Of a stretch of DNA of 63,751 nucleotides, positions 18,052 to 41,078 are shown piece after piece. Both the position numbers and the translations under genes were made by a program. The notes beneath the pieces are model-generated. The model searched no databases, was not told where the DNA came from, and saw only the letters and a program-made list of their open reading frames with translations. The DNA lies in assembly GCA_012798115.1 (NCBI GenBank), contig JAAZNV010000012.1:1-63751 (forward strand). The letters run 5' to 3'. Position 1 is the first letter of the stretch. Every line of letters begins with the position of its first letter. Origin of the DNA: a candidate division WWE3 bacterium. Its GTDB lineage: Bacteria > Patescibacteriota > WWE3 > UBA101185 > UBA10185.

Positions 18052-19026
18052 ATGGATCAAGCACATAATTACATTCAAAACGAAATAGAAAGAATAACAA
18101 AAGAAATAGAATTTAACAAAAAAACATTGGAAAGTGAAATTAATACTGAGATGAAGAAGCTTTACGAAGAAGAAATCTATAGTCTTCAAAAACAAAAAGA
18201 AGAGTTAGAAAAATCCTTAGATAGTTCAAGTTACCAACCAGAAAAGAAAAATATAATAAGTGAAGGAGATTTTAATTTAGATCCTAACGTTGCAACCATG
18301 GAAATAAGATCAGGAACAGGTGGGGATGAAGCAGGATTATTTGCTAAAGATTTATTTAGAATGTATTCAAGATACGGCGAAAAGGCTAAATGGAAGATAA
18401 CAGAAGAGTATCTAAATGAAAATGAAGTAGGAGGAATTAAAACTTTGATAGCTGACATTAAAGGACAAAATGTGTATAAGCTCCTAAAAAATGAGTCTGG
18501 AGTTCATAGAGTACAAAGAATTCCAGTAACGGAATCTGGTGGTAGAATACACACCTCAACAGCCACCGTAGCTGTTCTTCCAAAATTAAAAAATATTAAC
18601 ATTGAAATAAAACCAGATGATTTAAAATGGGAGTTTTATAGGTCTGGAGGAAAAGGTGGCCAAAATGTTAATAAAGTATCAACTGCAGTTAGACTTACTC
18701 ATATACCAACGGGAACTATTGTTGAATGCCAAGAAGAAAGGTACCAAGGAAAAAACAGAGAAAAAGCTTTAAGTATTCTCCATTCCAAGCTTTACACTCA
18801 AATGCAAGAACAACACGTAAAAAGTATAACTGAGTTAAGATCCTCCCAGGTAGGCACAGGAGAGCGAAGCGAAAAAATAAGAACATATAATTTTCCACAA
18901 GATAGAATCACAGATCATAGAATAAATAAAACATGGCATAGCATTGAAAGAGTTATGAATGGGGATGTAGAAAATATATTAGAAGAGTGCTCTCTAATTG
19001 AATCACAAGATAATAAAAATGATTAA
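18052..19026 (+). CDS. prfA: peptide chain release factor 1
   Basis: GGKGGQNVNKV GGQ motif and RIPVTES (PxT tripeptide, RF1-type). Confidence 0.85.
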   Translation: MDQAHNYIQNEIERITKEIEFNKKTLESEINTEMKKLYEEEIYSLQKQKEELEKSLDSSSYQPEKKNIISEGDFNLDPNVATMEIRSGTGGDEAGLFAKDLFRMYSRYGEKAKWKITEEYLNENEVGGIKTLIADIKGQNVYKLLKNESGVHRVQRIPVTESGGRIHTSTATVAVLPKLKNINIEIKPDDLKWEFYRSGGKGGQNVNKVSTAVRLTHIPTGTIVECQEERYQGKNREKALSILHSKLYTQMQEQHVKSITELRSSQVGTGERSEKIRTYNFPQDRITDHRINKTWHSIERVMNGDVENILEECSLIESQDNKND

Positions 19027-25325: not shown

Positions 25326-26510
25326 TCAACGAAGTTTTTCCATTAAAATTGAGTAAAACCTAAGATTATGGATAGTAGCAAGTCTATAAGCAGAAGGCTC
25401 CTTTATTTTAAATAAGTGGTGTAGGTAGGCTCGAGTATAATTTTTACACAAAAGGCAATCACAAGCTTTACTTATAACATCTTTATCATTAGTATATTTG
25501 CTCTTTTCAGGAGAAAAATAGCCATAAAAACCATCTTTTTTCACATTTATATCTTTAATTGAATCTGCACTAAACACATAAAGTCTTCCATGTCTTGCAT
25601 CTCTAGTTGGAAGTACACAATCAAAAATATTAAACCCTAAATCTACACATTTAACTATGTCATCAGGCTTCCCTACTCCCAACCCATACAGAAAATAGTT
25701 ACTTGGAGAATTTTCTGCAATTACTTTTGCAATATTAAGATTAAACTTCCCATTTCTCATTATTGGCCAACCCCCATAACCTAATCCATCAAATCCTATT
25801 TCAACTAATTTCTTCGTGCATTCTTTTCTTAGATCCAAAAAATTACCTCCTTGAACAATTCCTAAAAGATAAGGTCTTTTTTCTTCAGTTAATTTTTTTT
25901 CTTTACATATTTTAAGAAATTCTTCTTTAGACTTCCTTGCCCAAAGAATAGTTCTTTCAACTGTTTCTTTTGCTTTTTCATAATTTGCATCTAAATCTGT
26001 AAAATCATCTAACACTACACACATATCTGGATTAATAAGCATTTGTATTTGAATTGATTTTTCTGGAGTTAGTTTTATTTTCTTTTCTCCAAACAAATTA
26101 TCTTTAGAATAAAAAGTTACTCCATTATTATTTACATAGTCATTTTTATTTTTAGATTTTTTTAATAAGTTTAGTAAATTATTCTTAAAAATACTTTTAT
26201 CATTTTCTTCCAAATCTAATTTAGATTTAGCTAAAGACATAACTTGGAATCCACCAGAATCAGATATTAAACCTCCATTCCATGACATAAATTGTCTTGC
26301 TCCACCATACATTTCTAACACATCTTGTCCTAAGTCTTTGTATAAATGATATGTGTTTACAAGCACTCCAGGGGTCTTTGTATTTTCTATGTCTTTGGAA
26401 TCAAGAGTTTTTAAAACTGCTCTTGTTGCATCAGGAAAGAATATTGGGAGAGGTATTTCTCCTTTGATTGTTTTAAATATTTTAATTTTCCTTTTCATAC
26501 CCTTTTTCAT
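25326..26510 (-). CDS. tgt: tRNA-guanine transglycosylase (queuine tRNA-ribosyltransferase) family
   Basis: FFPDAT, LISDSGGFQV, zinc site CDCLLCKNYTRAYLHHL. Confidence 0.85.
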   Translation of the reverse strand: MKKGMKRKIKIFKTIKGEIPLPIFFPDATRAVLKTLDSKDIENTKTPGVLVNTYHLYKDLGQDVLEMYGGARQFMSWNGGLISDSGGFQVMSLAKSKLDLEENDKSIFKNNLLNLLKKSKNKNDYVNNNGVTFYSKDNLFGEKKIKLTPEKSIQIQMLINPDMCVVLDDFTDLDANYEKAKETVERTILWARKSKEEFLKICKEKKLTEEKRPYLLGIVQGGNFLDLRKECTKKLVEIGFDGLGYGGWPIMRNGKFNLNIAKVIAENSPSNYFLYGLGVGKPDDIVKCVDLGFNIFDCVLPTRDARHGRLYVFSADSIKDINVKKDGFYGYFSPEKSKYTNDKDVISKACDCLLCKNYTRAYLHHLFKIKEPSAYRLATIHNLRFYSILMEKLR

Positions 26511-27574
26511 TTTAAAGTGTAATAAGTAGACCTTCCTCCACCTTTTCTTTTTAGTACCCCTAACTTAGCAAGTCTTTTAAAATCTAATGCTCTTGTTGCT
26601 TTAGCTCTATTAGTGATTTTCTTATAAGTAGAATCAGTGATGTAACCATTGCTTTCTATATACGTTATTATTTTTTTATCATGCAACTTCATAGACGTTT
26701 CAGGATTAAAGCTAGCCTTAGATAACTCATTAAATAATCTTGTGAGTTCATCTATTATTCCATCGGTAAAGTATTCTAGCCAATCTGTGAAATCTATAGA
26801 ATTCTTAATTTCGTAATAATCACCAAAGACACCTACATTCTTAAAGTACTCAGATACATTTTTGTTGTAGTAATTCTCAAAGCTAAACAAATTAAAGGTG
26901 TTTAAACCCATCCGTGATAATAAAAACTTAGTGAGAAGTCTTGCTGTCCTTCCATTTCCATCAATAAAAGGGTGTATTACTACAAAGTGCTTATGAAATA
27001 TTCCAGAAAGGATAATTGGATCAATTATCAACATATTTTTATTAATAAAACCAATAAGTTCTCCCATAAGTTTATTTACATCTTTGTAATTAGGGGGTAA
27101 ATAAACTATTTTTCCATTTCTAGGATTATTTACAACAACAGGTTTGTTTCTATATTTACCTTCGTCTGCTTTTAAAATTAAACCAGATGTAACTTTTTTA
27201 TGAATTTTCAAAATTAAGGAGTTATTCAGAAGTATCTTACTCATCTCTAAACTTTTCGTGTATGAAGTATCAGATGCACTTTTATCAGTAATTATTTTTA
27301 AATATTCCAAAGCTTCGTTATAGTTTAATACTTCCCTTTCAGTATCTCTAATATGTTGAGGTTTATTCTTAAGTATTTTTTTAACTTCAGTTAAAGAGAG
27401 GGGATTTCCTTCTATACTTGTAGAAGAATATGTAGATTGTTCTAGAGCCATTTTCTCAAATTTCAGAAGTATTGTCTTAGGATATCTTTTAAGGTTTAAT
27501 TTGGTGGTCAAGGATGTTATTTCTTTTATGTTGTTAAGTATTTTAGATGTTATTGTATATCTAGGATTAAACAT
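26507..27574 (-). CDS. Fic-family protein (class II, internal inhibitory helix) with C-terminal wHTH-like domain
   Basis: HPFIDGNGRTARLL Fic motif. STSIEG matches the inhibitory (S/T)xxxE(G/N) motif. Start moved to ATG 27574, because the track TTG start is part of a TTGACA box. Confidence 0.85.
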   Translation of the reverse strand: MFNPRYTITSKILNNIKEITSLTTKLNLKRYPKTILLKFEKMALEQSTYSSTSIEGNPLSLTEVKKILKNKPQHIRDTEREVLNYNEALEYLKIITDKSASDTSYTKSLEMSKILLNNSLILKIHKKVTSGLILKADEGKYRNKPVVVNNPRNGKIVYLPPNYKDVNKLMGELIGFINKNMLIIDPIILSGIFHKHFVVIHPFIDGNGRTARLLTKFLLSRMGLNTFNLFSFENYYNKNVSEYFKNVGVFGDYYEIKNSIDFTDWLEYFTDGIIDELTRLFNELSKASFNPETSMKLHDKKIITYIESNGYITDSTYKKITNRAKATRALDFKRLAKLGVLKRKGGGRSTYYTLK

Positions 27575-27732
27575 GGATATTAGACTAATAATAGACGAAT
27601 AATAGACAAATGTCAATTTGTTTAAACTGAAAGAACCAAAAATGCGCTCCCGTGCATTAAGTCGAGCAGTCCTACCCTACTACTCTCCTTTCACAGAAGC
27701 GCATTTTTATCCCCAAGTTTTTAAAACTTACA

Positions 27733-27781
27733 GGAGGTGGGTTGGCATCTTTTTAAGATATTCCAATACACCTCCCAAGAG
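27733..27781 (-). terminator. conserved hairpin element, copy 1 (terminator-like, downstream of the 133-aa ORF)
   Basis: Stem GGAGGTG/CACCTCC encloses a 22-nt core gcatctttttaagatattccaa identical to copy 2. A GTTTT run follows on the minus strand. Confidence 0.5.
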
Positions 27782-27789
27782 GCTTTATT

Positions 27790-28191
27790 TTATTCCTCCT
27801 TTATAACTTCCGCATTAAAGATATCCAAAAACTTTTTCTTGGATCTTACTAGGTTTGTCCATACACACCTATTTCCATCCTGGTGGGAAGGAAGGTATAT
27901 ATCTATCCTCCGCTTCCTTAACTCCTCCTCAGCCACAGCAAAGGTAAGCTTATTACTGTAAAGGTAACTATGGAAAATTACCTCAAAGACAGAAAGAGTA
28001 CATCCTTCTACTCCGCTAAGAATGCTCTCAACACCTATATAGGTACTAAAAAGGATATTGTTTAATACCTCTTCTGGCATTTCTTTGTTGGCTACCTTTA
28101 TTTTTTCCAGGAGCTTTCTTTCATGAACCCCCAGGCTATCTTGGGAGATCTTCTCCCAGATACCTGTATTTCTTTTGTTCTTTTCTTCCAT
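27790..28191 (-). CDS. hypothetical protein (orphan, in accessory cassette)
   Basis: 133-aa ORF with a purine-rich SD-like GGAAAGAGGA upstream. Confidence 0.5.
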   Translation of the reverse strand: MEEKNKRNTGIWEKISQDSLGVHERKLLEKIKVANKEMPEEVLNNILFSTYIGVESILSGVEGCTLSVFEVIFHSYLYSNKLTFAVAEEELRKRRIDIYLPSHQDGNRCVWTNLVRSKKKFLDIFNAEVIKEE

Positions 28192-28323
28192 CTTTTCCTC
28201 TTTCCTTTTTATTTATTTTTTGATCTTTCATAACCTCTAGATCAATTTTTTTAACCAAGAAGTTATTAGAGAGATAGGGAATGGGGAGAAAACAAATGAG
28301 GTCGAAGTCTCCCCTCTGCAGAA

Positions 28324-28617
28324 CTAGTGTTTAGAAATCAACACTTTGTTCGCCCTTCCATCGTCGTACCACACCTCTCCAAAGGCATGGAGAACAGCAT
28401 GGAAAACGATGAGGTAAGCCCACACAGCCATAGGACCAGTGAGCACAACTGCCTTCCGATCATTAGCAGGAATTTCCTGCACAATTTTCTGCGCATTCCT
28501 ACCAATAATGTTGGCCGCCTCTTCCGGAGGCGTAATCAAGGTCAAACGACCCCCGACCTCTTGAACATTACACCCAACATATAGTTGGATGTTGTCTAAA
28601 CCCATGTTAATTTTCAT
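28324..28617 (-). CDS. small Csx3/Crn3-like protein (candidate cyclic-oligoadenylate ring nuclease fold)
   Basis: ATG at 28617 is preceded by AAGGAG. AVVLTGPMAVWAYLIVFHAVLHAFGEVWYDDGRANKVLI resembles the Csx3 core as I recall it (VVISGRGPIWL..L.H..HH..VAVYDPRLG..VV). Locally GC-rich by eye. Confidence 0.45.
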   Translation of the reverse strand: MKINMGLDNIQLYVGCNVQEVGGRLTLITPPEEAANIIGRNAQKIVQEIPANDRKAVVLTGPMAVWAYLIVFHAVLHAFGEVWYDDGRANKVLISKH

Positions 28618-28682
28618 TTTTTTCTCCTTTCCACTTTTTGGGTTTTCAGAACTTTCCAATGTTTGAAAAGCTCAAAAAACTC

Positions 28683-28729
28683 GGGAGGTACTAGCATCTT
28701 TTTAAGATATTCCAACTACCTCCCAAGAG
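28683..28729 (-). terminator. conserved hairpin element, copy 2 (terminator-like, downstream of the 28791 ORF)
   Basis: Stem GGGAGGTA/TACCTCCC with the same 22-nt core. Followed on the minus strand by GTTTTTT. Confidence 0.55.
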
Positions 28730-28790
28730 ACTTGTGCGTTTAAGTTTTTGGACATTACACACCGTGGTCCTCTATCCCTATCCCTGAGTT

Positions 28791-29345
28791 TTAATATATA
28801 CCATCTCCCTCAGGGGTAGACTCAAATTCATAGCCTAACTTGGCCATGAATTTCACCTCTTTCTCTGTTGGTTTTAACAGAGAAGGAGACACCTCTATGA
28901 TAGAGGCGTATCTTGCTGACATTAATAGACTAACGTCAGCAACTTTCGCGGTTGTTACACCACGAAAGATTTTTTGTTTTCCCTTATCACCTTCATACTC
29001 GGTGACGAGGGCTTTTCTTCCTTCTTTACCAGGAAGCCTTATAAAGGTTCCGGTAATGAGCCCTGAGTGATGAGATGTCCTCACCACTCTTCTATACCTA
29101 TAAATCATTTTCTTCCCCCTTCTGATACATCCAGAAGGAGGATGGTAATTATAATCACTGTCATAATCCCCAATACCGTGTTCACAACTTGGGGAAAAAC
29201 AATCACTGCGACCACATAGATCACAGTGAAACCGCATAAAATTCCCATCAACTTCTCTTTTGTTCTCATTTTTCCTCTTCTCCAAAGGACTGATCTTGTC
29301 CAATGGTTGGTGCATACATATATACGTATGTATGCACACAATCAT
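28791..29345 (-). CDS. hypothetical protein. Alternative model: a 54-aa two-TM peptide (29105..29269) plus a 105-aa protein (28791..29108) coupled by ATGA.
   Basis: 184-aa track ORF. A second open frame gives MRTKEKLMGILCGFTVIYVVAVIVFPQVVNTVLGIMTVIIITILLL, whose stop overlaps the internal ATG at 29108 (tcat at 29105-29108). Confidence 0.4.
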   Translation of the reverse strand: MIVCIHTYICMHQPLDKISPLEKRKNENKREVDGNFMRFHCDLCGRSDCFSPSCEHGIGDYDSDYNYHPPSGCIRRGKKMIYRYRRVVRTSHHSGLITGTFIRLPGKEGRKALVTEYEGDKGKQKIFRGVTTAKVADVSLLMSARYASIIEVSPSLLKPTEKEVKFMAKLGYEFESTPEGDGIY

Positions 29346-30138
29346 TTGGCAAAATAAAAATGAAAATATTTAGCTATTCTTGGGATATTCAATTGTAAAA
29401 GTACTCCTTCTTTCTTACTTACTATCTGGTTTTGGTACTATACTTTTCGTACAGTACCTAATCAGAAAGCAAATGCTTAACGTACTTCTCCTTTGTGTAA
29501 CAGTCATAAATTTACTTACTACAAAGGGTAGGTTTGTAACAAACAAATTAATGTTTATTACTTGTCTTTAGTCTCTTTTTATTTGAGCCACTCTGTACTC
29601 TAAAAGTACCAGATTCTCTAATTCATTCTTTTAGTCATTCCTAAACTTCTTTGCTAAAAGATATACTTGTTAGCAACCGCTTGGGTAGGAAATATTAGGC
29701 TGACATCTACTTAAGATAATTTGTCTTAAGCAAAAATCTGTCTAAGATATCGGTAGGCCAGTTTGAACTCTCTCCTTAAATAAATAGGTATAAAGTACCT
29801 TCAACTTTAGAAAGAAAACAGTGTTCCGTGTATCTTGGGCAGATTTTCACCTAAGAAACAAAATTAGCTCGGTTCCTTTAACCCGAGCTTATACTTTTAG
29901 CTTTAAACCTTATCAACTAAGGTCCGGTAGGAACAAGCTTTGATCATTATATTTTAAATGTTCTCTCTAACTTTCTAAATATATTGTATCTCATAGTTTA
30001 ATATTTGTCAAGTACTTTGACTAGATCTACAAGACATTAATAGAGCTATTATGTACGTTCTATAGAATAATTGTACTATAAGATTATAGGTATGTCAATA
30101 CCGTTGACAGTATATTGGAAAGTTGCTTATATGTATAT

Positions 30139-30942
30139 ATGTCTCTAATTAATGAGGTTCTTACTCAAGCAGGCTTAGATAGCAAAGAAGCATCTGTTTA
30201 CTCCACCCTACTTAATAATGGCGGTCTTACTGTACTAGAGATTGCAAATAAATCTGAGCAAAAAAGAACTAACCTTTATAACATCCTTGAAGATCTTAAA
30301 CAACAAAACTTAGTAAAAGAAGTTAAAGAAGGCACAACTACCAAATACTTTCCTCAGTCCCCCAAGGAAATTGAGAAATTATTAGAGAGAAAATCACAAA
30401 TGGTTCATCATGCAAAACTTAACTACGAAATACTCATTAACTCTCTTCAATCACAATTTACACTCATAGAAAACAAACCTTTGATAACATATCTTGAGGG
30501 TATTAAAGGCTTACATAGACTTTATGAAGACATAAATGATACTGGAGAAGATATATTGTTGTTAAGATCTGCTTACGATGACAAGAGAAAAGACGTAGAT
30601 AATTTAGTGTCTGCACAAATAGTAGAACAAGTCAAAAGAGGAATACATGCAAAAGTAATAGGACCATTAGAAGACATTGAAGAGGCAAAATCACTGTATA
30701 CAAAGTACGACAAGATAAGATTAGTTGAAGAAAGGTATATCAAAAACTTTCCTTTTAATCTACCAGCTCAGGTAACCGTATATGGAACCAAAACTGCAAT
30801 CTCCACGATAAGAAAAGACATTATTATTACAATAATAGATAACAAAGATACTACCGATACCTTTAGAACGTTATTTGATTTTATATGGAAATACTCTACC
30901 CCTGAGCATAACAACATAGTAAAGAACTGGGTGCAGGAGTGA
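30139..30942 (+). CDS. TrmB-family transcriptional regulator
   Basis: N-terminal wHTH LTQAGLDSKEASVYSTLLNNGGLTVLEIANKSEQKRTNLYNILEDLKQQNLV plus a TrmB-like C-terminal domain. ATG at 30139 (the track start is TTG). Confidence 0.7.
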   Translation: MSLINEVLTQAGLDSKEASVYSTLLNNGGLTVLEIANKSEQKRTNLYNILEDLKQQNLVKEVKEGTTTKYFPQSPKEIEKLLERKSQMVHHAKLNYEILINSLQSQFTLIENKPLITYLEGIKGLHRLYEDINDTGEDILLLRSAYDDKRKDVDNLVSAQIVEQVKRGIHAKVIGPLEDIEEAKSLYTKYDKIRLVEERYIKNFPFNLPAQVTVYGTKTAISTIRKDIIITIIDNKDTTDTFRTLFDFIWKYSTPEHNNIVKNWVQE

Positions 30943-30949
30943 GTTAGAC

Positions 30950-33223
30950 CTATCTCACAAACCTTGATTTGATATACCCTCTAAATTTTTCTGCAACCTC
31001 AGGAAAATGATTTGCAACTTCTGGCTTAAATGAAAGTTCACTATGACCACCTTCTGATCCTTCTACAAGCCCCAAAACACGTCCAACACGTTGCGAAGGC
31101 CAAATTCCAGCACTTCTATCAGGTTTCCCTACTCCTATATCTAAAGAAACAACTGTAGGCTTATCTACTTCACCAATAAAATCCCCATAGTCACTTAAGT
31201 CAAGACTAATTCTTGCATTATCCTTAGTTTTTGAATTTGTTACACTAAAATTTATTCTAGCTTCACCGCCCAAAATACTACCTTTCTTTATAGTTGACTT
31301 AGGTCTTATAGAAATTACAATGCGATTTTCTAATTTATCAACCAGTACAAAGGAGGTTGAGGCAGACTTAACTAGGACACCATCTTTATCATACTCATCT
31401 TGGGTCTGCGGCTTTTGCTCAAGTCGTAAACCTGAATCTTCTTCATATACACCCTTTAGAGCTCTTAAAGAAAAGACCATAGTATTCATGTTTTTCAGTA
31501 GTTCCTTTATCGTTATATCTCCACCCTCACCCTTGGCTATAATCTGTGCTGCTTTAAAGAACTCGGCATTTTTTCTCACAAAAGCCTCATACACTTGCGG
31601 AGCAAATTCATAACCAATATCTGTCTCTGTTTGCTTAAAAATTTCTCGCAAACCTAATGCTTCATTTGCAACACAATAAAAATTCTTAAGCACGGCTAAC
31701 TTTTCTTCCTTTTCTAACTTTGAAGTTTCTGCAAAATCAAGTATTTCCTGTCCAGAGCCACCATACTCTAAAGCTAAAAATGACTTAAGTCCATATTCAC
31801 CATATTCTGTAACAAACTTTCTTAGTCGTTCTAGTTCCTTAGTATCTTCTTGATTAGATAGTTTTAAATAATTAAGGAGAAACCACCCTTGCTCATGTAG
31901 ATCAAGCGAATTTAATTTTACTCCTGTACCTTTAAAAAACTTATCGTTAAAAATATTTTCATAGTTCTCCAAGAACAACTGCAGGTATTTATCTCTTTGT
32001 TGCCTTTGTATAGGTGTTTCGTCTGCTTTTGGCAGGAATAACTCCTGCGACATCAACTGACGCACTTCAGTTTGAATCACATCTTCTTTTGAATAAAGAT
32101 TTAGCGGAAAAACCCCTTTAATACTTCCTTCTTCCAGTACTGCCATCAAACCCGAGCTATTTAATCTCCTTACAAAAAAGTCAGGATCGTTGTATTTACC
32201 TAAATCATATAATTTACCAAGGTATTCAACGCCTTTTTCTGTAACACCAACATTACCAAGTTCAAGTCTAAAAAGAATCTCTGCACTCATTCTTCTTGTT
32301 AGAGTGTCATTACTCTTTAGATTTTTCAACAAGTACGGAACGGCATTTTCTGCACCAAGATTTTCAAATGCTTCAACATAATTTCCTAAACTTCCTTCTG
32401 ATCTCACACTTAAGTATTCTGTCAAAAACCTTGCAGCTATTGGTCTTTCTTTTTCACTCCATGAGTAATTAGCAATAGCTTTAACAACAGTAGAGTGAAA
32501 TTTTCTATACTCTGGATCAGCAAACTCCAAATACGTATCTTTGTTGTAGTATACGTCTTCATCATAGTCATAACTAATCTCCCCATACTCTCTAGATAAA
32601 ATCTGCTGGTAGGAACTAGTCTTAACATCAGTAATATACTCGGATGCTTTTTCTATTGAAGGAAATGCAGATGCACCATTAATATTCAACATACTAACAA
32701 CCAACTCAGATGCTCTGTTGAAATACCAAGAGTCAAACTCATACTGCTTTTGTATGTACTCCTCAAGTCTAGTTATTACAGAGGAACGATCTGTAGCACT
32801 GCCACTCGTGCTTAATTTTTCAAGTTTGCTTAATGCAGGTAGAAAAGCCTTGTTCATAAGATAGCAATATGCGCCTGATTCTACTGGTGAGTCATCATAA
32901 TAAATACTCCCCTTCACTACCTTCTTTCCTAGCCAATCCCCCATAAAAAGCTTGTCAACTTGTTGAAGATGATTAAAAACTGCGTCTAATGATTTAGCTT
33001 CATCCAAACTTTGTGCAACTTTTGGTATTACATCAGCATAAGTGTTTTCGACATCCTTCCTTTCCCACTCTGCAATGGAATAACTCTTTTTATCAACAAC
33101 ATTCTCTGGTAATTCCTTCACACCAGGCCATAACTCTTCAATCAAATCCCCGCTTAAATACTCATGTTCTTGACCTTCCTCTACAGGTATTTTGGGTTGT
33201 TCAGTTTCAACGAAATTTGACAT
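30950..33223 (-). CDS. large orphan protein with HEAT/PBS-lyase-like repeat segment, function unknown
   Basis: 757-aa uninterrupted ORF. ENAVPYLLKNLKSNDTLTRRMSAEILFRL is HEAT-like. I found no catalytic motif. Confidence 0.7.
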   Translation of the reverse strand: MSNFVETEQPKIPVEEGQEHEYLSGDLIEELWPGVKELPENVVDKKSYSIAEWERKDVENTYADVIPKVAQSLDEAKSLDAVFNHLQQVDKLFMGDWLGKKVVKGSIYYDDSPVESGAYCYLMNKAFLPALSKLEKLSTSGSATDRSSVITRLEEYIQKQYEFDSWYFNRASELVVSMLNINGASAFPSIEKASEYITDVKTSSYQQILSREYGEISYDYDEDVYYNKDTYLEFADPEYRKFHSTVVKAIANYSWSEKERPIAARFLTEYLSVRSEGSLGNYVEAFENLGAENAVPYLLKNLKSNDTLTRRMSAEILFRLELGNVGVTEKGVEYLGKLYDLGKYNDPDFFVRRLNSSGLMAVLEEGSIKGVFPLNLYSKEDVIQTEVRQLMSQELFLPKADETPIQRQQRDKYLQLFLENYENIFNDKFFKGTGVKLNSLDLHEQGWFLLNYLKLSNQEDTKELERLRKFVTEYGEYGLKSFLALEYGGSGQEILDFAETSKLEKEEKLAVLKNFYCVANEALGLREIFKQTETDIGYEFAPQVYEAFVRKNAEFFKAAQIIAKGEGGDITIKELLKNMNTMVFSLRALKGVYEEDSGLRLEQKPQTQDEYDKDGVLVKSASTSFVLVDKLENRIVISIRPKSTIKKGSILGGEARINFSVTNSKTKDNARISLDLSDYGDFIGEVDKPTVVSLDIGVGKPDRSAGIWPSQRVGRVLGLVEGSEGGHSELSFKPEVANHFPEVAEKFRGYIKSRFVR

Positions 33224-33268
33224 ATTTTACACATTCATACTAAACATCACTACTTAATTGTATATAAA

Positions 33269-33841
33269 CTAAATAACTTCTTTGATAAAGATTCTAATAA
33301 CATCCTCTAACTTATTGGAAGGAATATCAGATAAAGCAACTCTCCAATCATCAATTAATATCTTTAAATCTTCATATAAACTATCTGCAGCATGATTTCT
33401 ATTTTCTATTGTATTTCTACTATCTCTGGAATTTGCAAACAACCCCGTGATTTTATGTTTATACAAAACAGCATTGGCCACTTTGTTTACATTCTGTCCC
33501 CCAGGCCCACCTGCTGAAAATTGACTGTAATCTAAATCTTTTGTTTCAACAAAAGGCTCTCCTAAATCTAAAGATTTAATCAACCAAGAACAGTATTTAT
33601 CTATATTTTTATCATTTACTTCCTTGTTTATATCTTTTGGAAAATGCTCTAGGGATTTGATAATTTTATCTTCTGCTTCTTTTAATCTTTTCTTTTGGGA
33701 GTTAGATATTTCTTCATCTTTTACTGCTTTTAATGTCTTTCCTCCTATACCTCCGCTTTTTCCACCACTTATACTTGTTACTATTTCATCTCCCAAACTA
33801 CTAGCTTCATCTATAGTTAAATCTTTAAAAATAACAGGCAT
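33269..33841 (-). CDS. GGQ-domain protein (release-factor domain 3 / ArfB / PrfH-like) lacking a codon-recognition domain
   Basis: FSAGGPGGQNVNKVANAVLYKHKITGLF...SRNTIENRNHA. About 110-aa unrelated N-terminal extension with GGKSGGIGGK. ATG at 33841. Confidence 0.7.
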   Translation of the reverse strand: MPVIFKDLTIDEASSLGDEIVTSISGGKSGGIGGKTLKAVKDEEISNSQKKRLKEAEDKIIKSLEHFPKDINKEVNDKNIDKYCSWLIKSLDLGEPFVETKDLDYSQFSAGGPGGQNVNKVANAVLYKHKITGLFANSRDSRNTIENRNHAADSLYEDLKILIDDWRVALSDIPSNKLEDVIRIFIKEVI

Positions 33842-33873
33842 ACAAAAATTATAGCAAATGGTAGTATTTTCAT

Positions 33874-34455
33874 ATGGAAGAAAAATATCCACCAAGCAAT
33901 AACGAAAAGCCCTTTGAAGTACCCAATGATGAGAAGCTTAAAGCTGTGAAAGACCCAGTAAAATTTTTAGAAAGTTATAAAAATAGCTCTGAATACGCAG
34001 AAGCATTAAATAAATTTAAATCTGGTAAAGACTCCTCCATTGCAACAGAAGAAGAGTGGAAGGAAGAATTTGAGGAACTTGATTTAGCAAGACAGACATT
34101 ACTTAAATTCTCTCAAAACAATGGAACCATTTTGTCTTTTTCTTCACAATATTACCCCAAAGGGTTCACAGAAGCTTATAATGACTACAGTGGAATGCTC
34201 AAAGATCTCCATAAGGGTAAGTATTTTGGTAAAGAAAGGGACGAAATTATCAAGTTTGATCAGATACGATCCCATTATCACAGTGAAGCTGCAAGTTGCC
34301 TTGTTAAGGCTGGTATAACCAAGTCAATCAAAATAGCAAGAGGTTTGGTAGAGTTAATGACTATTGACCAAAAGCTTGAAACTTTCAATAATGCATTCAT
34401 AGATGAAACTCAAAGAATAAAGTTCCAATTATCTAGTTCTCCAGAGGTATTTTAA
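33874..34455 (+). CDS. hypothetical protein
   Basis: 193-aa ORF divergent from the GGQ gene. No motif recognised. Confidence 0.5.
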   Translation: MEEKYPPSNNEKPFEVPNDEKLKAVKDPVKFLESYKNSSEYAEALNKFKSGKDSSIATEEEWKEEFEELDLARQTLLKFSQNNGTILSFSSQYYPKGFTEAYNDYSGMLKDLHKGKYFGKERDEIIKFDQIRSHYHSEAASCLVKAGITKSIKIARGLVELMTIDQKLETFNNAFIDETQRIKFQLSSSPEVF

Positions 34456-34528
34456 CCACGATCCTATAGTTGACCAAAAGAAACCAAAATGATAGAATTC
34501 TCACACTTAACATACACAAGGAGAGAAA

Positions 34529-34837
34529 ATGGAAATGGAAAGTATTCTCACCGAACTAAAGGATCTTCTTAGGAGTACAAAGGTCCAAGTCCAACTAAAA
34601 CAAGACGTTGACGTTATAGAAACAACAATTATTGGATCTGCGTACTCAATAGAAATTCGCAGAGTACTTGGTGAACAAAGGTACTTAGCACATATCGTTA
34701 AGTGTGGTGTAAGCATAGACAACTTTGATTCCACCAATATAAGAGAGTTAATGTTAGTTTGCTTACAAAGGATTGTAAACCTATTAGGAGGAGAAAGAGA
34801 ACTAATAGAGCAAAACCTTAGACAGCTCATTGAGTAA
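34529..34837 (+). CDS. small hypothetical protein
   Basis: 102-aa ORF with strong SD (AAGGAGAGAAAATG). Confidence 0.55.
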   Translation: MEMESILTELKDLLRSTKVQVQLKQDVDVIETTIIGSAYSIEIRRVLGEQRYLAHIVKCGVSIDNFDSTNIRELMLVCLQRIVNLLGGERELIEQNLRQLIE

Positions 34838-34899
34838 AAAACCAGTGAGCTGTTTTTATTTCCTTTTAAACTTCTAGAAAATAAACTATCATTAACTCA

Positions 34900-36846
34900 A
34901 TGCCCAAATCTTCTTTGTTAAGAAAACAACTCTTTACATTCGTATATCTTTTCTTGTTTGCTTTTATTCCTACTAAAGTTTTTGCGGAAACAACTCCTCC
35001 CGTTACTACCGCCGAAAAAGAACCCCCTGCTCCAAATGGCAAACTTCTTTGGTACGTTACTCCAGTGGAAATAACACTCACATCTACTGACCTTGAAAGC
35101 GGTGTTAAGGAAATAAACTACAAGATAGATAGCAGCAACTGGGCAAAAAAAGACTTCACAGACACACTAAATTTAATATCTAATCCATCATTTGAAATGT
35201 CGGATGAAAATACTCCAATTTATACTAAAGATTGGGCAGTTGGAGTACAAGATCAGTATGTAACTTACTCAAGAGACAGTTTGAACTATAAACCAGGATT
35301 TGCAACAACTTCAATTCAAATATCGTCAACAGGAGGATCTTGGCACTCAATAAACAACTCAGATAACTTTGCCGTTTCTACTTCCTACAACAATATGAAT
35401 GCGTATGCATGGATAAAGACAGAAAGTGTTTCTGGTTCTGCATATTTTAAAGTATATGCAATATCTCAAGATCAAAGTGGTCAACAAACAATAAACTTAT
35501 TATCTACAAGTTCATCTTTAACAGGAACAAACGATTGGACGCAGCTATCATTAAACTTTGTTGTAGGAGTTGATAATGCTATTGGTGTCTATATGGAAAT
35601 AGGTATAGAAGGAGCAGGGACAGTGTGGATGGATGCAGTAAACATAAACAGCTCCTTAGCTCCAACTACCACTTTTACAGTAGCAACAGATGGAGAACAT
35701 ACAGTTCAATATTATGCAGTGGACAAAGCAGAAAACATAGAAAACATCAAAACTACCAGCTTTAAAATAGATCAAACACCACCAGGAAACTGGAGAGATT
35801 CCGGTGCAGTTAGGGCGTTATTCGGTAGTGATCACGAGCTTTATGTTTGGACCCACGTAGATGATACAACATCTGGATTATCAACACTTACTGATAAATT
35901 TCAATACACAACAAGAGTACATGATGGGTTTGGTAGATTCTCAACTTTATACAGTTGTAGCAGCACATGGCAACCAAACACATGGGCAGTACTAGTTAGC
36001 CCACCATTTTTACCAGGAGCATACTCTGCATACCTAATTACACCTAAAGTAGATTTTTGCGATAGTAACTGGAAGATATGTCACTACACTAGATTTTATG
36101 CCGAAGACTTAGCAGGAAATTCTTCCACTAAAGACATGTGTATAAACGGTCCATGGATAAAGGTTAGAGGGAAAGGAATAGTAAGATCAAACAATGATAT
36201 TGACATGATTTCAGAAGCTTACGAGGACAATACAGATGGATTAATAGAAACGAAAGGAAATTTTATAGACTTTTTTAATTCATCCGTTGGCTTATATATG
36301 AACAACTCTGTTAATCCTCCTGATTACGACTACAATAAATTCTTTAATATGACATCAAGTTCAAAAAACCAAATATCAACATCAGAAGATTTAATTTCAG
36401 CAGATGGAATTTACTTTGTAGACGGGGACTACGAGATAACATCTCAAAAAATACCAAGCAATTATTCTAGTGCTACCTTTAATCAAATAGTTTTCATAAA
36501 TGGAAACCTTAGGATATCTAGTGCAATTCAAGTAGCAAATAGTTCAACAGCATTGTTTATAGTAAAAGGAAATGTAGAAATAGCTAAGACAGTAACAACA
36601 ATTAAAGTAGGAATAATTTGTGATGGTTCAATATATACTGCATACAATATAACGGAAGGAGAAGCATCTTCTGCTATCACCATGAACGGAATTTTTATTG
36701 CAAATAAAATAGCTTTTCAAAGAACTCTTCAGGGTACACAAAACGAAAAATATCCTTCTGACGAAATAACATATGAACCTAAATATGTATTAAAACTAAG
36801 AGATTATATAGGTGTGAATGATATCCAATGGCTTTCTACAAACTAA
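34900..36846 (+). CDS. secreted surface protein: signal peptide, two Ig-like (chitobiase/OmpL47-type) modules flanking a CBM4/9-like jelly roll, then a beta-rich C-terminal domain
   Basis: Signal LFTFVYLFLFAFIPTKVFA-ETT. ESGVKEINYKIDSSNW and GEHTVQYYAVDKAENIENIKTTSFKIDQTPP. NPSFE...W CBM-like start. Confidence 0.7.
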   Translation: MPKSSLLRKQLFTFVYLFLFAFIPTKVFAETTPPVTTAEKEPPAPNGKLLWYVTPVEITLTSTDLESGVKEINYKIDSSNWAKKDFTDTLNLISNPSFEMSDENTPIYTKDWAVGVQDQYVTYSRDSLNYKPGFATTSIQISSTGGSWHSINNSDNFAVSTSYNNMNAYAWIKTESVSGSAYFKVYAISQDQSGQQTINLLSTSSSLTGTNDWTQLSLNFVVGVDNAIGVYMEIGIEGAGTVWMDAVNINSSLAPTTTFTVATDGEHTVQYYAVDKAENIENIKTTSFKIDQTPPGNWRDSGAVRALFGSDHELYVWTHVDDTTSGLSTLTDKFQYTTRVHDGFGRFSTLYSCSSTWQPNTWAVLVSPPFLPGAYSAYLITPKVDFCDSNWKICHYTRFYAEDLAGNSSTKDMCINGPWIKVRGKGIVRSNNDIDMISEAYEDNTDGLIETKGNFIDFFNSSVGLYMNNSVNPPDYDYNKFFNMTSSSKNQISTSEDLISADGIYFVDGDYEITSQKIPSNYSSATFNQIVFINGNLRISSAIQVANSSTALFIVKGNVEIAKTVTTIKVGIICDGSIYTAYNITEGEASSAITMNGIFIANKIAFQRTLQGTQNEKYPSDEITYEPKYVLKLRDYIGVNDIQWLSTN

Positions 36847-40577: not shown

Positions 40578-41078
40578 TTACAATAGCAGTGAATCAATGT
40601 TTAAACTTTCTATAATTTCTAATTCTTTATCACTAAAATCTAATAACACCCAGTTTTCGACCAGAATATTTTTGTTTTCAGGTCTTCCAACTCCTATTCT
40701 AACTCTCCAAAAGTCTTTAGTCCCAATACTCTTAATAATACTTTCCACCCCATGATGTCCTGCAGAGCCGGAACCTATTTTCCTCTTGACCAAACCAAAA
40801 GGCAAATCTACATCATCATGTATAACTATTAATTCTTCAGGGCTTATTTTATAAAAATCTAAGATTTTAGAGACTGCCTTCCCTGAATTATTCATAAAAG
40901 TTAAGGGTTTACACAATATAAAATCTTTTTGAAGGATAATATCAGACTCAAACTTCTGTGAATTTTCCCAGTCTAGATTTAAACTTCTTACATAATTATC
41001 AAGAACCATATATCCAACGTTGTGCCTATTTTTCTTATGATCTTCTCCAGGATTTCCCAGCCCAACAACTAACTTCAT
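40578..41078 (-). CDS. pth: peptidyl-tRNA hydrolase
   Basis: MKLVVGLGNPG...NRHNVGYMVLD. Confidence 0.9.
   Translation of the reverse strand: MKLVVGLGNPGEDHKKNRHNVGYMVLDNYVRSLNLDWENSQKFESDIILQKDFILCKPLTFMNNSGKAVSKILDFYKISPEELIVIHDDVDLPFGLVKRKIGSGSAGHHGVESIIKSIGTKDFWRVRIGVGRPENKNILVENWVLLDFSDKELEIIESLNIDSLLL

Follow-up and report, generated by a model that had tools for sequence, protein, structure and literature searches.

The 63,751-nt contig JAAZNV010000012.1 (assembly GCA_012798115.1) of a candidate division WWE3 bacterium, the whole of which we call the window, encodes a 190-aa protein with the GGQ catalytic loop of peptide chain release factors (RFs), followed on the same strand by the gene of a 757-aa protein. 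A first-pass annotation, made from the letters of the window, had read the two genes as an operon and as a possible ribosome rescue, quality-control or conflict module. On the evidence presented here we lean instead towards seeing the GGQ protein as a member of a distinct, widespread and unstudied family of ~190-aa stand-alone proteins built on the RF catalytic domain, which would act alone as a rescue factor, the 757-aa gene lying outside the system. The GGQ protein has an intact catalytic domain with an invariant GGQ, no codon-reading domain and a conserved N-terminal module specific to the family, and codon-independent peptidyl-tRNA hydrolysis in ribosome rescue is its most likely function. 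The 757-aa gene is part of a separate module, shared with a TrmB-type regulator, in a variable island. The coordinates of these features are collected in Table 1.

Both open reading frames (ORFs) were confirmed at the positions first given, on the minus strand, and so was the catalytic domain recognised from the stretch GGPGGQNVNKV...SRNTIENRN: Pfam RF-1 (PF00472) matches residues 98-159 with an E value of 2e-13 and 50.7 bits (cut-off 35). As the first-pass annotation had observed, the protein has no codon-recognition domain (neither a Pfam PCRF domain nor a PxT or SPF tripeptide) and no basic C-terminal tail of the ArfB type. The ORF starts at an ATG, 32 nt from a divergent upstream ORF. The longest possible ORF would start at a TTG at 33895, but this start is unsupported because the homologues begin at the same 'MP.I' N-terminus as the ATG.

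An AlphaFold2 (AF2) model built on the family alignment (mean predicted local distance difference test, pLDDT, 75.8; predicted template modelling score, pTM, 0.65) shows a GGQ domain of the classical type, devoid of the alpha-i insertion, with strands at residues 103-109, 123-129 and 135-138, a helix at 144-169 and the GGQ loop between the first two strands. Everything outside this domain is predicted to be helical or disordered, with pLDDT below 50 at residues 1-8, 17-19 and 21-35 and a weakly supported helix at 10-21. The Foldseek search that had been suggested as a check retrieves, with this model, only domain 3 of RF1, RF2, PrfH and C12orf65. Homology to RFs is limited to approximately residues 95-165: residues 1-99 align to RFs with an hhalign probability of 0.7%, and to the truncated RFs of candidate phyla radiation (CPR) bacteria with a probability of 0.06%; on these values the idea that the N-terminal hairpin is what remains of RF domain 1 or 2 was rejected. 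Aromatic residues conserved both in the hairpin and in the helix following the GGQ loop suggest that these helices would pack into one bundle. The Gly-rich segment GGKSGGIGGK (residues 26-35) was also considered as part of a Walker A P-loop (GGKSGGIGGKT) and rejected as such, since it is predicted to be disordered, its spacing to the KT pair varies within the family and no NTPase fold follows.

The N-terminal extension with its Gly-rich segment had been described as unique. The extension is present as described, but judging from the alignments it is shared by a large family and not peculiar to the protein of the window. A first search gave ~22 homologues of 190-216 aa. When the family profile was searched against 1.84 billion cluster representatives, 57 matches fell below 1e-30, and ~125-130 of the best 150 representatives (50% identity) were 175-260 aa long and matched nearly the full length of the profile. 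In a second profile search, 90 clusters (90% identity) scored at least 132 bits and canonical RF1 and RF2 at most 96 bits, so that by sequence the family is distinct and well separated from the canonical RFs. Among 60 diverse members examined with Pfam, all have RF-1 as their only domain, PCRF being absent throughout; none of the 60 (0/60) reaches the curated NCBIfam cut-offs for prfA, prfB, prfH or ArfB, and no Pfam or NCBIfam model covers the whole architecture of the family. The N-terminal hairpin module has no significant Pfam match in these 60 members; a Ccdc124/Oxs1 match in one of them (E 0.024) was discarded as not significant.

Conservation within the family extends over the whole protein. 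Across the 60 aligned members Y83, G114-G115-Q116, H129 and N147 are invariant, W86, N119, K120, R142, A151 and W166 are nearly so, and K35 and T36 are conserved in the family alignments. The first ~27 residues are acidic family-wide (median charge -5), the next ~45 are Gly-rich and basic (median +6), and the C-terminal segment, with a median net charge of -1, is not basic.

The members are named in their sources 'hypothetical protein' or 'peptide chain release factor-like protein [Patescibacteria group bacterium]', with one of them coming, by its source name, from a 'Bacteroidetes' metagenome-assembled genome. The family is found mainly in Patescibacteria (CPR), and it may extend beyond them, as one subfamily is carried by a contig of 53.5% GC along with FTHFS and formate dehydrogenase genes. 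A scan of GTDB genomes, for which the pattern was reduced to the GGQ motif, gave ordinary RF1 and RF2 only and a family member in none of 80 loci (0/80), so the taxonomic spread is judged from source names and contig content only. Genetic contexts vary between subfamilies (cysS...GGQ-tgt; gyrB-ppa-NAGPA-GGQ-DUF167-PspC; Gp49/HTH pair-GGQ-methyltransferase; formate dehydrogenase-GGQ), and across them the family has no conserved gene partner. In one relative with a family member (L096, 1284-4562), gyrB holds an intein (1092 aa, Intein_splicing domain). We found no description of this architecture in the literature available to us: a 2019 survey of RF peptidyl-hydrolase domains covers RF1, RF2, two ArfB classes, PrfH, ICT1, C12orf65 and MRPS35 (PMC6514570), and neither Patescibacteria nor CPR appear in a 2024 census of rescue pathways (PMC11633108).

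Comparison with the known release and rescue factors places the catalytic domain closest in sequence to domain 3 of RF1 and RF2. The family profile searched against PDB scores 86 bits with RF1, 83 with PrfH, 73 with RF2, 66 with C12orf65 and at most 44 with ArfB/ICT1, and the motifs GGQNVNK, H-PT and R-Q-NR are kept. The family is nevertheless half the length of RF1 and RF2 and lacks their domain 1, their PCRF/domain 2 with its PxT or SPF and their domain 4; the GGQ protein scores only 41 and 40 bits with the NCBIfam RF1 and RF2 models (cut-offs 400 and 370). With ArfB (YaeJ) and ICT1 it shares a small stand-alone GGQ protein with neither a codon-recognition domain nor an obligate gene partner and, presumably, codon-independent peptidyl-tRNA hydrolysis on the ribosome. 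The order of parts is however reversed. In ArfB the GGQ domain comes first and is followed by a linker and a basic helix at the C-terminus, which enters the mRNA channel, whereas here an acidic, then Gly-rich and basic tail and a hairpin precede the GGQ domain, and the C-terminus is not basic. Moreover, the GGQ domain has no alpha-i insertion and aligns with that of ArfB/ICT1 over ~35 residues, only up to that insertion; the ArfB model NF006718 gives 25.1 bits against a cut-off of 100. The mitochondrial factor C12orf65/mtRF-R, also a stand-alone rescue-type factor, has the same classical type of GGQ domain, but it carries a C-terminal basic extension and acts with MTRES1 on split large subunits, whereas the extension of the present family is N-terminal and helical and no C-terminal basic extension exists.

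To examine whether the GGQ and 757-aa genes belong together, we compared ~20 related loci (designated by L numbers), obtained by exact-protein look-ups and a metagenome scan, using tblastn, blastp and the family hidden Markov model. The GGQ gene directly precedes the 757-aa gene only in the strain of the window, including L098, which comes from the same population (~99% DNA identity). In five locus types (L003/L004, L006, L104, L107/L112) tgt lies between the two, the order being GGQ, tgt, zero to two small ORFs, 757-aa gene and, on the opposite strand, the TrmB gene. In L001 (a 691-kb contig), L002 and L012, tgt and ychF come after the GGQ gene, a 757-aa gene is missing within 8 kb, and the 757-aa homologues listed include none from these three contigs (that of L001 carries P0005). 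Conversely, the 757-aa/TrmB pair occurs with no GGQ-family gene in its flanks in L100/L101/L106, L105, L110/L111, L113 and the P0060 contig. The TrmB gene is convergent with and adjacent to the 757-aa gene in every locus having downstream sequence. The conserved two-gene operon of the first-pass annotation is thus not what related genomes contain, each gene occurring without the other: the usual downstream neighbour of the GGQ gene in relatives is tgt, and the constant partner of the 757-aa gene is TrmB. Lack of synteny of the pair in other genomes is what the first-pass annotation had itself named as refuting its idea. The neighbourhood had also been called accessory-looking, which holds for the island starting just downstream of the GGQ gene and not for the GGQ gene itself, which sits on a conserved side with cysS, the gene of a 648-aa protein and tgt. 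Only in the strain of the window does the island fall between the GGQ gene and tgt.

Taken together, these data lead us to propose that the GGQ protein would enter the ribosomal A site on its own and hydrolyse peptidyl-tRNA without reading a stop codon, in a ribosome-dependent but codon-independent reaction, as a rescue factor similar to ArfB or mtRF-R. The N-terminal basic tail and helical bundle would replace the C-terminal tail of ArfB in binding the ribosome or sensing its state, possibly an empty A site or mRNA channel. More tentatively still, and with some doubt on our part, the family could represent a new architectural class of codon-independent rescue factor, common in Patescibacteria, in which a Gly-rich/basic N-terminal tail and a helical bundle guide a GGQ domain of the RF1/RF2 type. 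Several points weigh against this proposal. The role assigned to the N-terminal module is pure inference from a model that is itself only moderately confident, residues 1-35 being mostly of low confidence, and the basic segment of the window protein has a charge of +2 compared with the family median of +6. Furthermore, the GGQ and 757-aa genes are at most ~4 kb apart in five related locus types, and their co-transcription in the window, along with some loose association, is conceivable.

This nearness also speaks for a two-component module for ribosome rescue, quality control or conflict, encoded by the GGQ and 757-aa genes as one operon. Such a module would be in keeping with the same-strand arrangement and short spacer, within which no terminator is predicted, and with the defence-like content (a SoFic gene and a weakly Csx3-like ORF) of the island around the 757-aa gene. 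We nevertheless consider it very improbable. Beyond the window's strain tgt and other genes intervene, each gene is found alone in the loci listed above, the GGQ family extends far beyond the size of the 757-aa family, its distant members have no 757-aa neighbour, and PADLOC, PHROG and Pfam give no match for the 757-aa protein. Inherited gene order accounts for the nearness of the two genes within the clade, since synteny is just as strong for cysS, the 648-aa gene and ychF. The same loci might suggest a functional tie of the GGQ protein to tgt and hence to queuosine tRNA modification, as tgt follows the GGQ gene tightly (by 38-124 nt, or as overlapping stop-to-stop ORFs) in L001, L002, L003, L006, L012, L104, L107 and L112. 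This pairing is however confined to one clade, with unrelated neighbours in other subfamilies, L105 keeps tgt without a GGQ gene, and the pair is split by 6.7 kb in the window, all of which makes a functional tie very improbable. In L012, tgt is itself split into ORFs of 51 and 308 aa, which could reflect a frameshift or a pseudogene.

Other alternatives concern the nature of the GGQ protein itself. Action on peptidyl-tRNA of split large subunits, as for mtRF-R, or release of intermediates of ribosome-associated quality control (RQC) is the one we would take most seriously, though we think it unlikely. The classical GGQ domain and the higher score with C12orf65 than with ArfB/ICT1 are what such a factor would show, and a compact helical module beside the GGQ domain could bind tRNA or 23S rRNA and not the mRNA channel. 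Against it stand the missing C-terminal basic extension and the lack of any MTRES1-like or RqcH/RqcP-like neighbour in the family contexts (an S4-domain partner elsewhere in the genome was not searched for); present data do not distinguish 70S from 50S substrates. PrfH, which would make the protein a factor releasing peptides from nuclease-damaged ribosomes within an RNA-repair system, is its best single-sequence PDB match (9mor, E 1.1e-5) and the second-best match of the profile, and is likewise an 'extra' RF paralogue of ~200 aa with its GGQ at a similar position. Membership in that group fails because the architecture differs and RtcB is absent: PrfH retains a codon-recognition-like domain 2/4 and adjoins RtcB, whereas in the AF2 model the GGQ domain is preceded by helices alone, with none of the beta-structure of PrfH/RF domain 2/4, the N-terminus has no RF homology, the PrfH model TIGR03072 gives 32.6 bits where 166.65 are required, and no RtcB gene is found in the window annotation or in ten family contexts. 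A PrfH-type function is thus extremely improbable. Finally, that the RF catalytic domain is the only recognisable part could point to a prfB or prfA gene that decay or a frameshift has reduced to a remnant, as the first-pass annotation itself had considered for prfB. This idea has next to no chance of being right, failing on family-wide conservation: the N- and C-terminal parts are kept at full length across more than 100 diverged clusters, including the invariant Y83 and near-invariant W86 and W166, and a clear margin in score lies between the family and the canonical RFs. In addition, the 32 nt to the divergent ORF leave no room for lost domains, and a second strain carries the gene unchanged amid varying neighbours. 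A stand-alone rescue factor thus seems the better explanation of the GGQ protein.

Each of the known stand-alone GGQ proteins (ArfB, ICT1, mtRF-R and PrfH) revealed its own means of recognising ribosomes in difficulty. The present family retains the catalytic loop, combines it with a putative recognition module that has no known relative, and abounds in Patescibacteria, a group already known for an unusual translation apparatus. If the protein is a true rescue factor, it would provide a new sensor design and fill a gap in what is known of stalled ribosomes in CPR bacteria. If the family is indeed a new architectural class, rescue of non-stop or stalled ribosomes would have evolved independently in these reduced genomes and been overlooked because annotation ends at 'release factor-like'. 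From sequence, what is new is the accessory module and the sizeable family, so far uncharacterised, that carries it, the GGQ domain of the RF1/RF2/PrfH type being known already. Having discounted the 757-aa neighbour as a partner also spares effort on a complex that probably does not exist.

Table 1. Positions in the window of the GGQ gene, the parts of its product and the surrounding features
Feature	Position	Strand	Description
GGQ protein gene	33269..33841	-	190 aa from ATG; Pfam RF-1, family alignments, profile searches
Residues 1-36	33734..33841	-	acidic N-terminus, then Gly-rich/basic segment to conserved K35-T36; predicted disordered
Residues 37-93	33563..33733	-	predicted two-helix hairpin (37-64, 73-93); family-specific module (AF2, invariant columns)
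Residues 98-169	33335..33550	-	GGQ catalytic domain (Pfam, AF2, Foldseek, profile against PDB)
GGQ tripeptide G114-G115-Q116	33494..33502	-	invariant in 60/60 aligned members
Residues 175-189	33275..33319	-	predicted C-terminal helix, not basic, no homology to RF domain 4
Spacer, GGQ stop codon to 757-aa gene start	33224..33268	-	45 nt, AT-rich
757-aa gene	30950..33223	-	clade-restricted orphan; HEAT-like repeat at ~ residues 277-335
TrmB-family winged-helix regulator gene	30115..30942	+	Pfam TrmB E 1.9e-13; convergent with 757-aa gene
tgt (tRNA-guanine transglycosylase)	25326..26510	-	Pfam TGT E 1e-88
Variable island between GGQ gene and tgt	26507..33223		~6.7 kb
Canonical prfA (RF1)	18052..19026	+	PCRF and RF-1 domains, PVT motif
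pth (peptidyl-tRNA hydrolase)	40578..41078	-	window annotation

The 757-aa protein belongs to a family of 34 clusters, all from one clade, and none of 33 members has a Pfam domain. The HEAT-like repeat noted in the first-pass annotation was recovered, the family profile matching alphaRep/HEAT designs with an E value of 3e-21 at profile positions ~254-319. About two repeats are involved, covering ~60 residues, a small part of the protein. They are all that is shared with alphaRep and PBS-HEAT proteins; the other ~700 residues, with two beta-rich domains, have no counterpart in Pfam, PDB or BFVD. AF2 models the protein confidently (pLDDT 82.7), with a helical solenoid (~50-320), a small beta domain (331-384), a helical domain (404-593) and, ahead of a terminal helix, a beta-rich domain (600-700). 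No significant match for its fold or family was found in PDB and BFVD (Foldseek), PADLOC, PHROGs or a scan of viral contigs, and the profile search against PDB recognised the HEAT-like repeat only. The conserved part is the C-terminal half, in which the many invariant Arg, Asp, Glu and His residues are a hint, from sequence, that the protein could be an enzyme (LHEQGWF, R640, R656, R671, D675, D695 and H727 are examples of invariant positions within residues ~330-757). Its C-terminal two-thirds may, going by the model, be a new enzymatic fold.

The functional context of the 757-aa protein is the TrmB regulator and not the GGQ protein. The product of the TrmB gene matches PF01978 with 50.5 bits (cut-off 25.6), confirming the earlier identification. 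Upstream of this gene lies an ORF-poor spacer of ~770 nt (29346-30114; 0.5-1.2 kb in relatives), with patches kept in L006/L007 (67 nt, 84%, ~29947-30013) and in L003. A TrmB operator or promoter region, or else a small RNA, could lie here; no Rfam match was found in the spacer.

Besides the 757-aa gene, the TrmB gene and this spacer, the island contains three orphan ORFs and a SoFic-type Fic gene (26507-27616; PADLOC SoFic E 1.7e-45). One of the orphans, a 111-aa ORF at 28324-28659, has a weak Csx3 match (E 3.5e-6), and a weak Cas_csx3 ORF is also found downstream of the TrmB gene in L006. The orphans and the Fic gene are absent from the close relatives L001-L008 and L012; in L100, L102 and L106 the corresponding site is occupied by a distantly related Fic gene (34% identity). 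A comparison with L098 shows the island to be mosaic over 28259-31500. The GGQ gene shows no difference over 573 nt, as opposed to 75 differences over 2274 nt in the 757-aa gene (42 synonymous and 25 non-synonymous codons), 49 of which cluster at 31000-31499, in the 3' third of the gene. A further 56 differences fall in 28250-29499, the strain background being ~0.2-0.4% divergence, and around ORF 27790-28191 L098 carries ~1.4 kb of different DNA instead. Since the 757-aa gene and the orphan ORFs vary while the GGQ gene is identical, the island looks like a recombining, variable segment with recombination-like tracts. No convincing flanking repeats, tRNA genes or integrase were found around it.

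Two copies of a ~45-nt hairpin with an identical 22-nt core (GCATCTTTTTAAGATATTCCAA) occur within the island, at 27730-27785 and 28680-28735, each just 3' of a minus-strand orphan ORF. Their outer stems differ by compensating changes, their minus-strand RNAs fold with -20.8 and -23.0 kcal/mol (z -3.7 and -3.9), and a U-run follows the second copy. The element, absent from all related loci fetched, is probably a terminator-like repeat.

No terminator-like hairpin is predicted in the spacer between the GGQ and 757-aa genes, so that co-transcription across it is possible. Promoter and terminator scans of 30000-35000 gave counts at background level. The window sequence is present in DNA metagenomes from activated sludge, bioreactor, biofilm, wastewater and soil, and no RNA runs containing it were found.

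Outside the island, the window is core housekeeping of the Patescibacteria type. As the first-pass annotation had pointed out, a canonical prfA and a pth are among these genes, making the GGQ gene an extra; the others include those for ATP synthase and L11/L1, nusG, def-fmt, topA, rpsB-tsf-frr, dnaX, recR, cysS, ychF, ssb, hisS, dnaB and efp. Over 55 window ORFs the stop codons are TAA (37), TGA (11) and TAG (7). The divergent orphans and the 648-aa protein upstream of the GGQ gene are as first described. The 648-aa protein (34900-36846) combines an OmpL47-type beta-barrel with Big_13-like domains, and its gene is conserved beside cysS in all relatives (46-77% identity), which makes it core to the clade and not accessory. 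The divergent 193-aa orphan (33874-34455) is kept only in some relatives (L001, 40%; L105, 36%).

A different kind of short RF was also encountered in CPR bacteria (Saccharibacteria, Paceibacterota, Giovannonibacteria and Colwellbacteria). These proteins of ~230-250 aa (among them P0023-P0045; L016, 3774-4739; L021, 4911-5639) lack the N-terminal domain 1 and begin directly at domain 2; both PCRF and RF-1 are present in them, as is a PKT or PAT motif resembling PxT.

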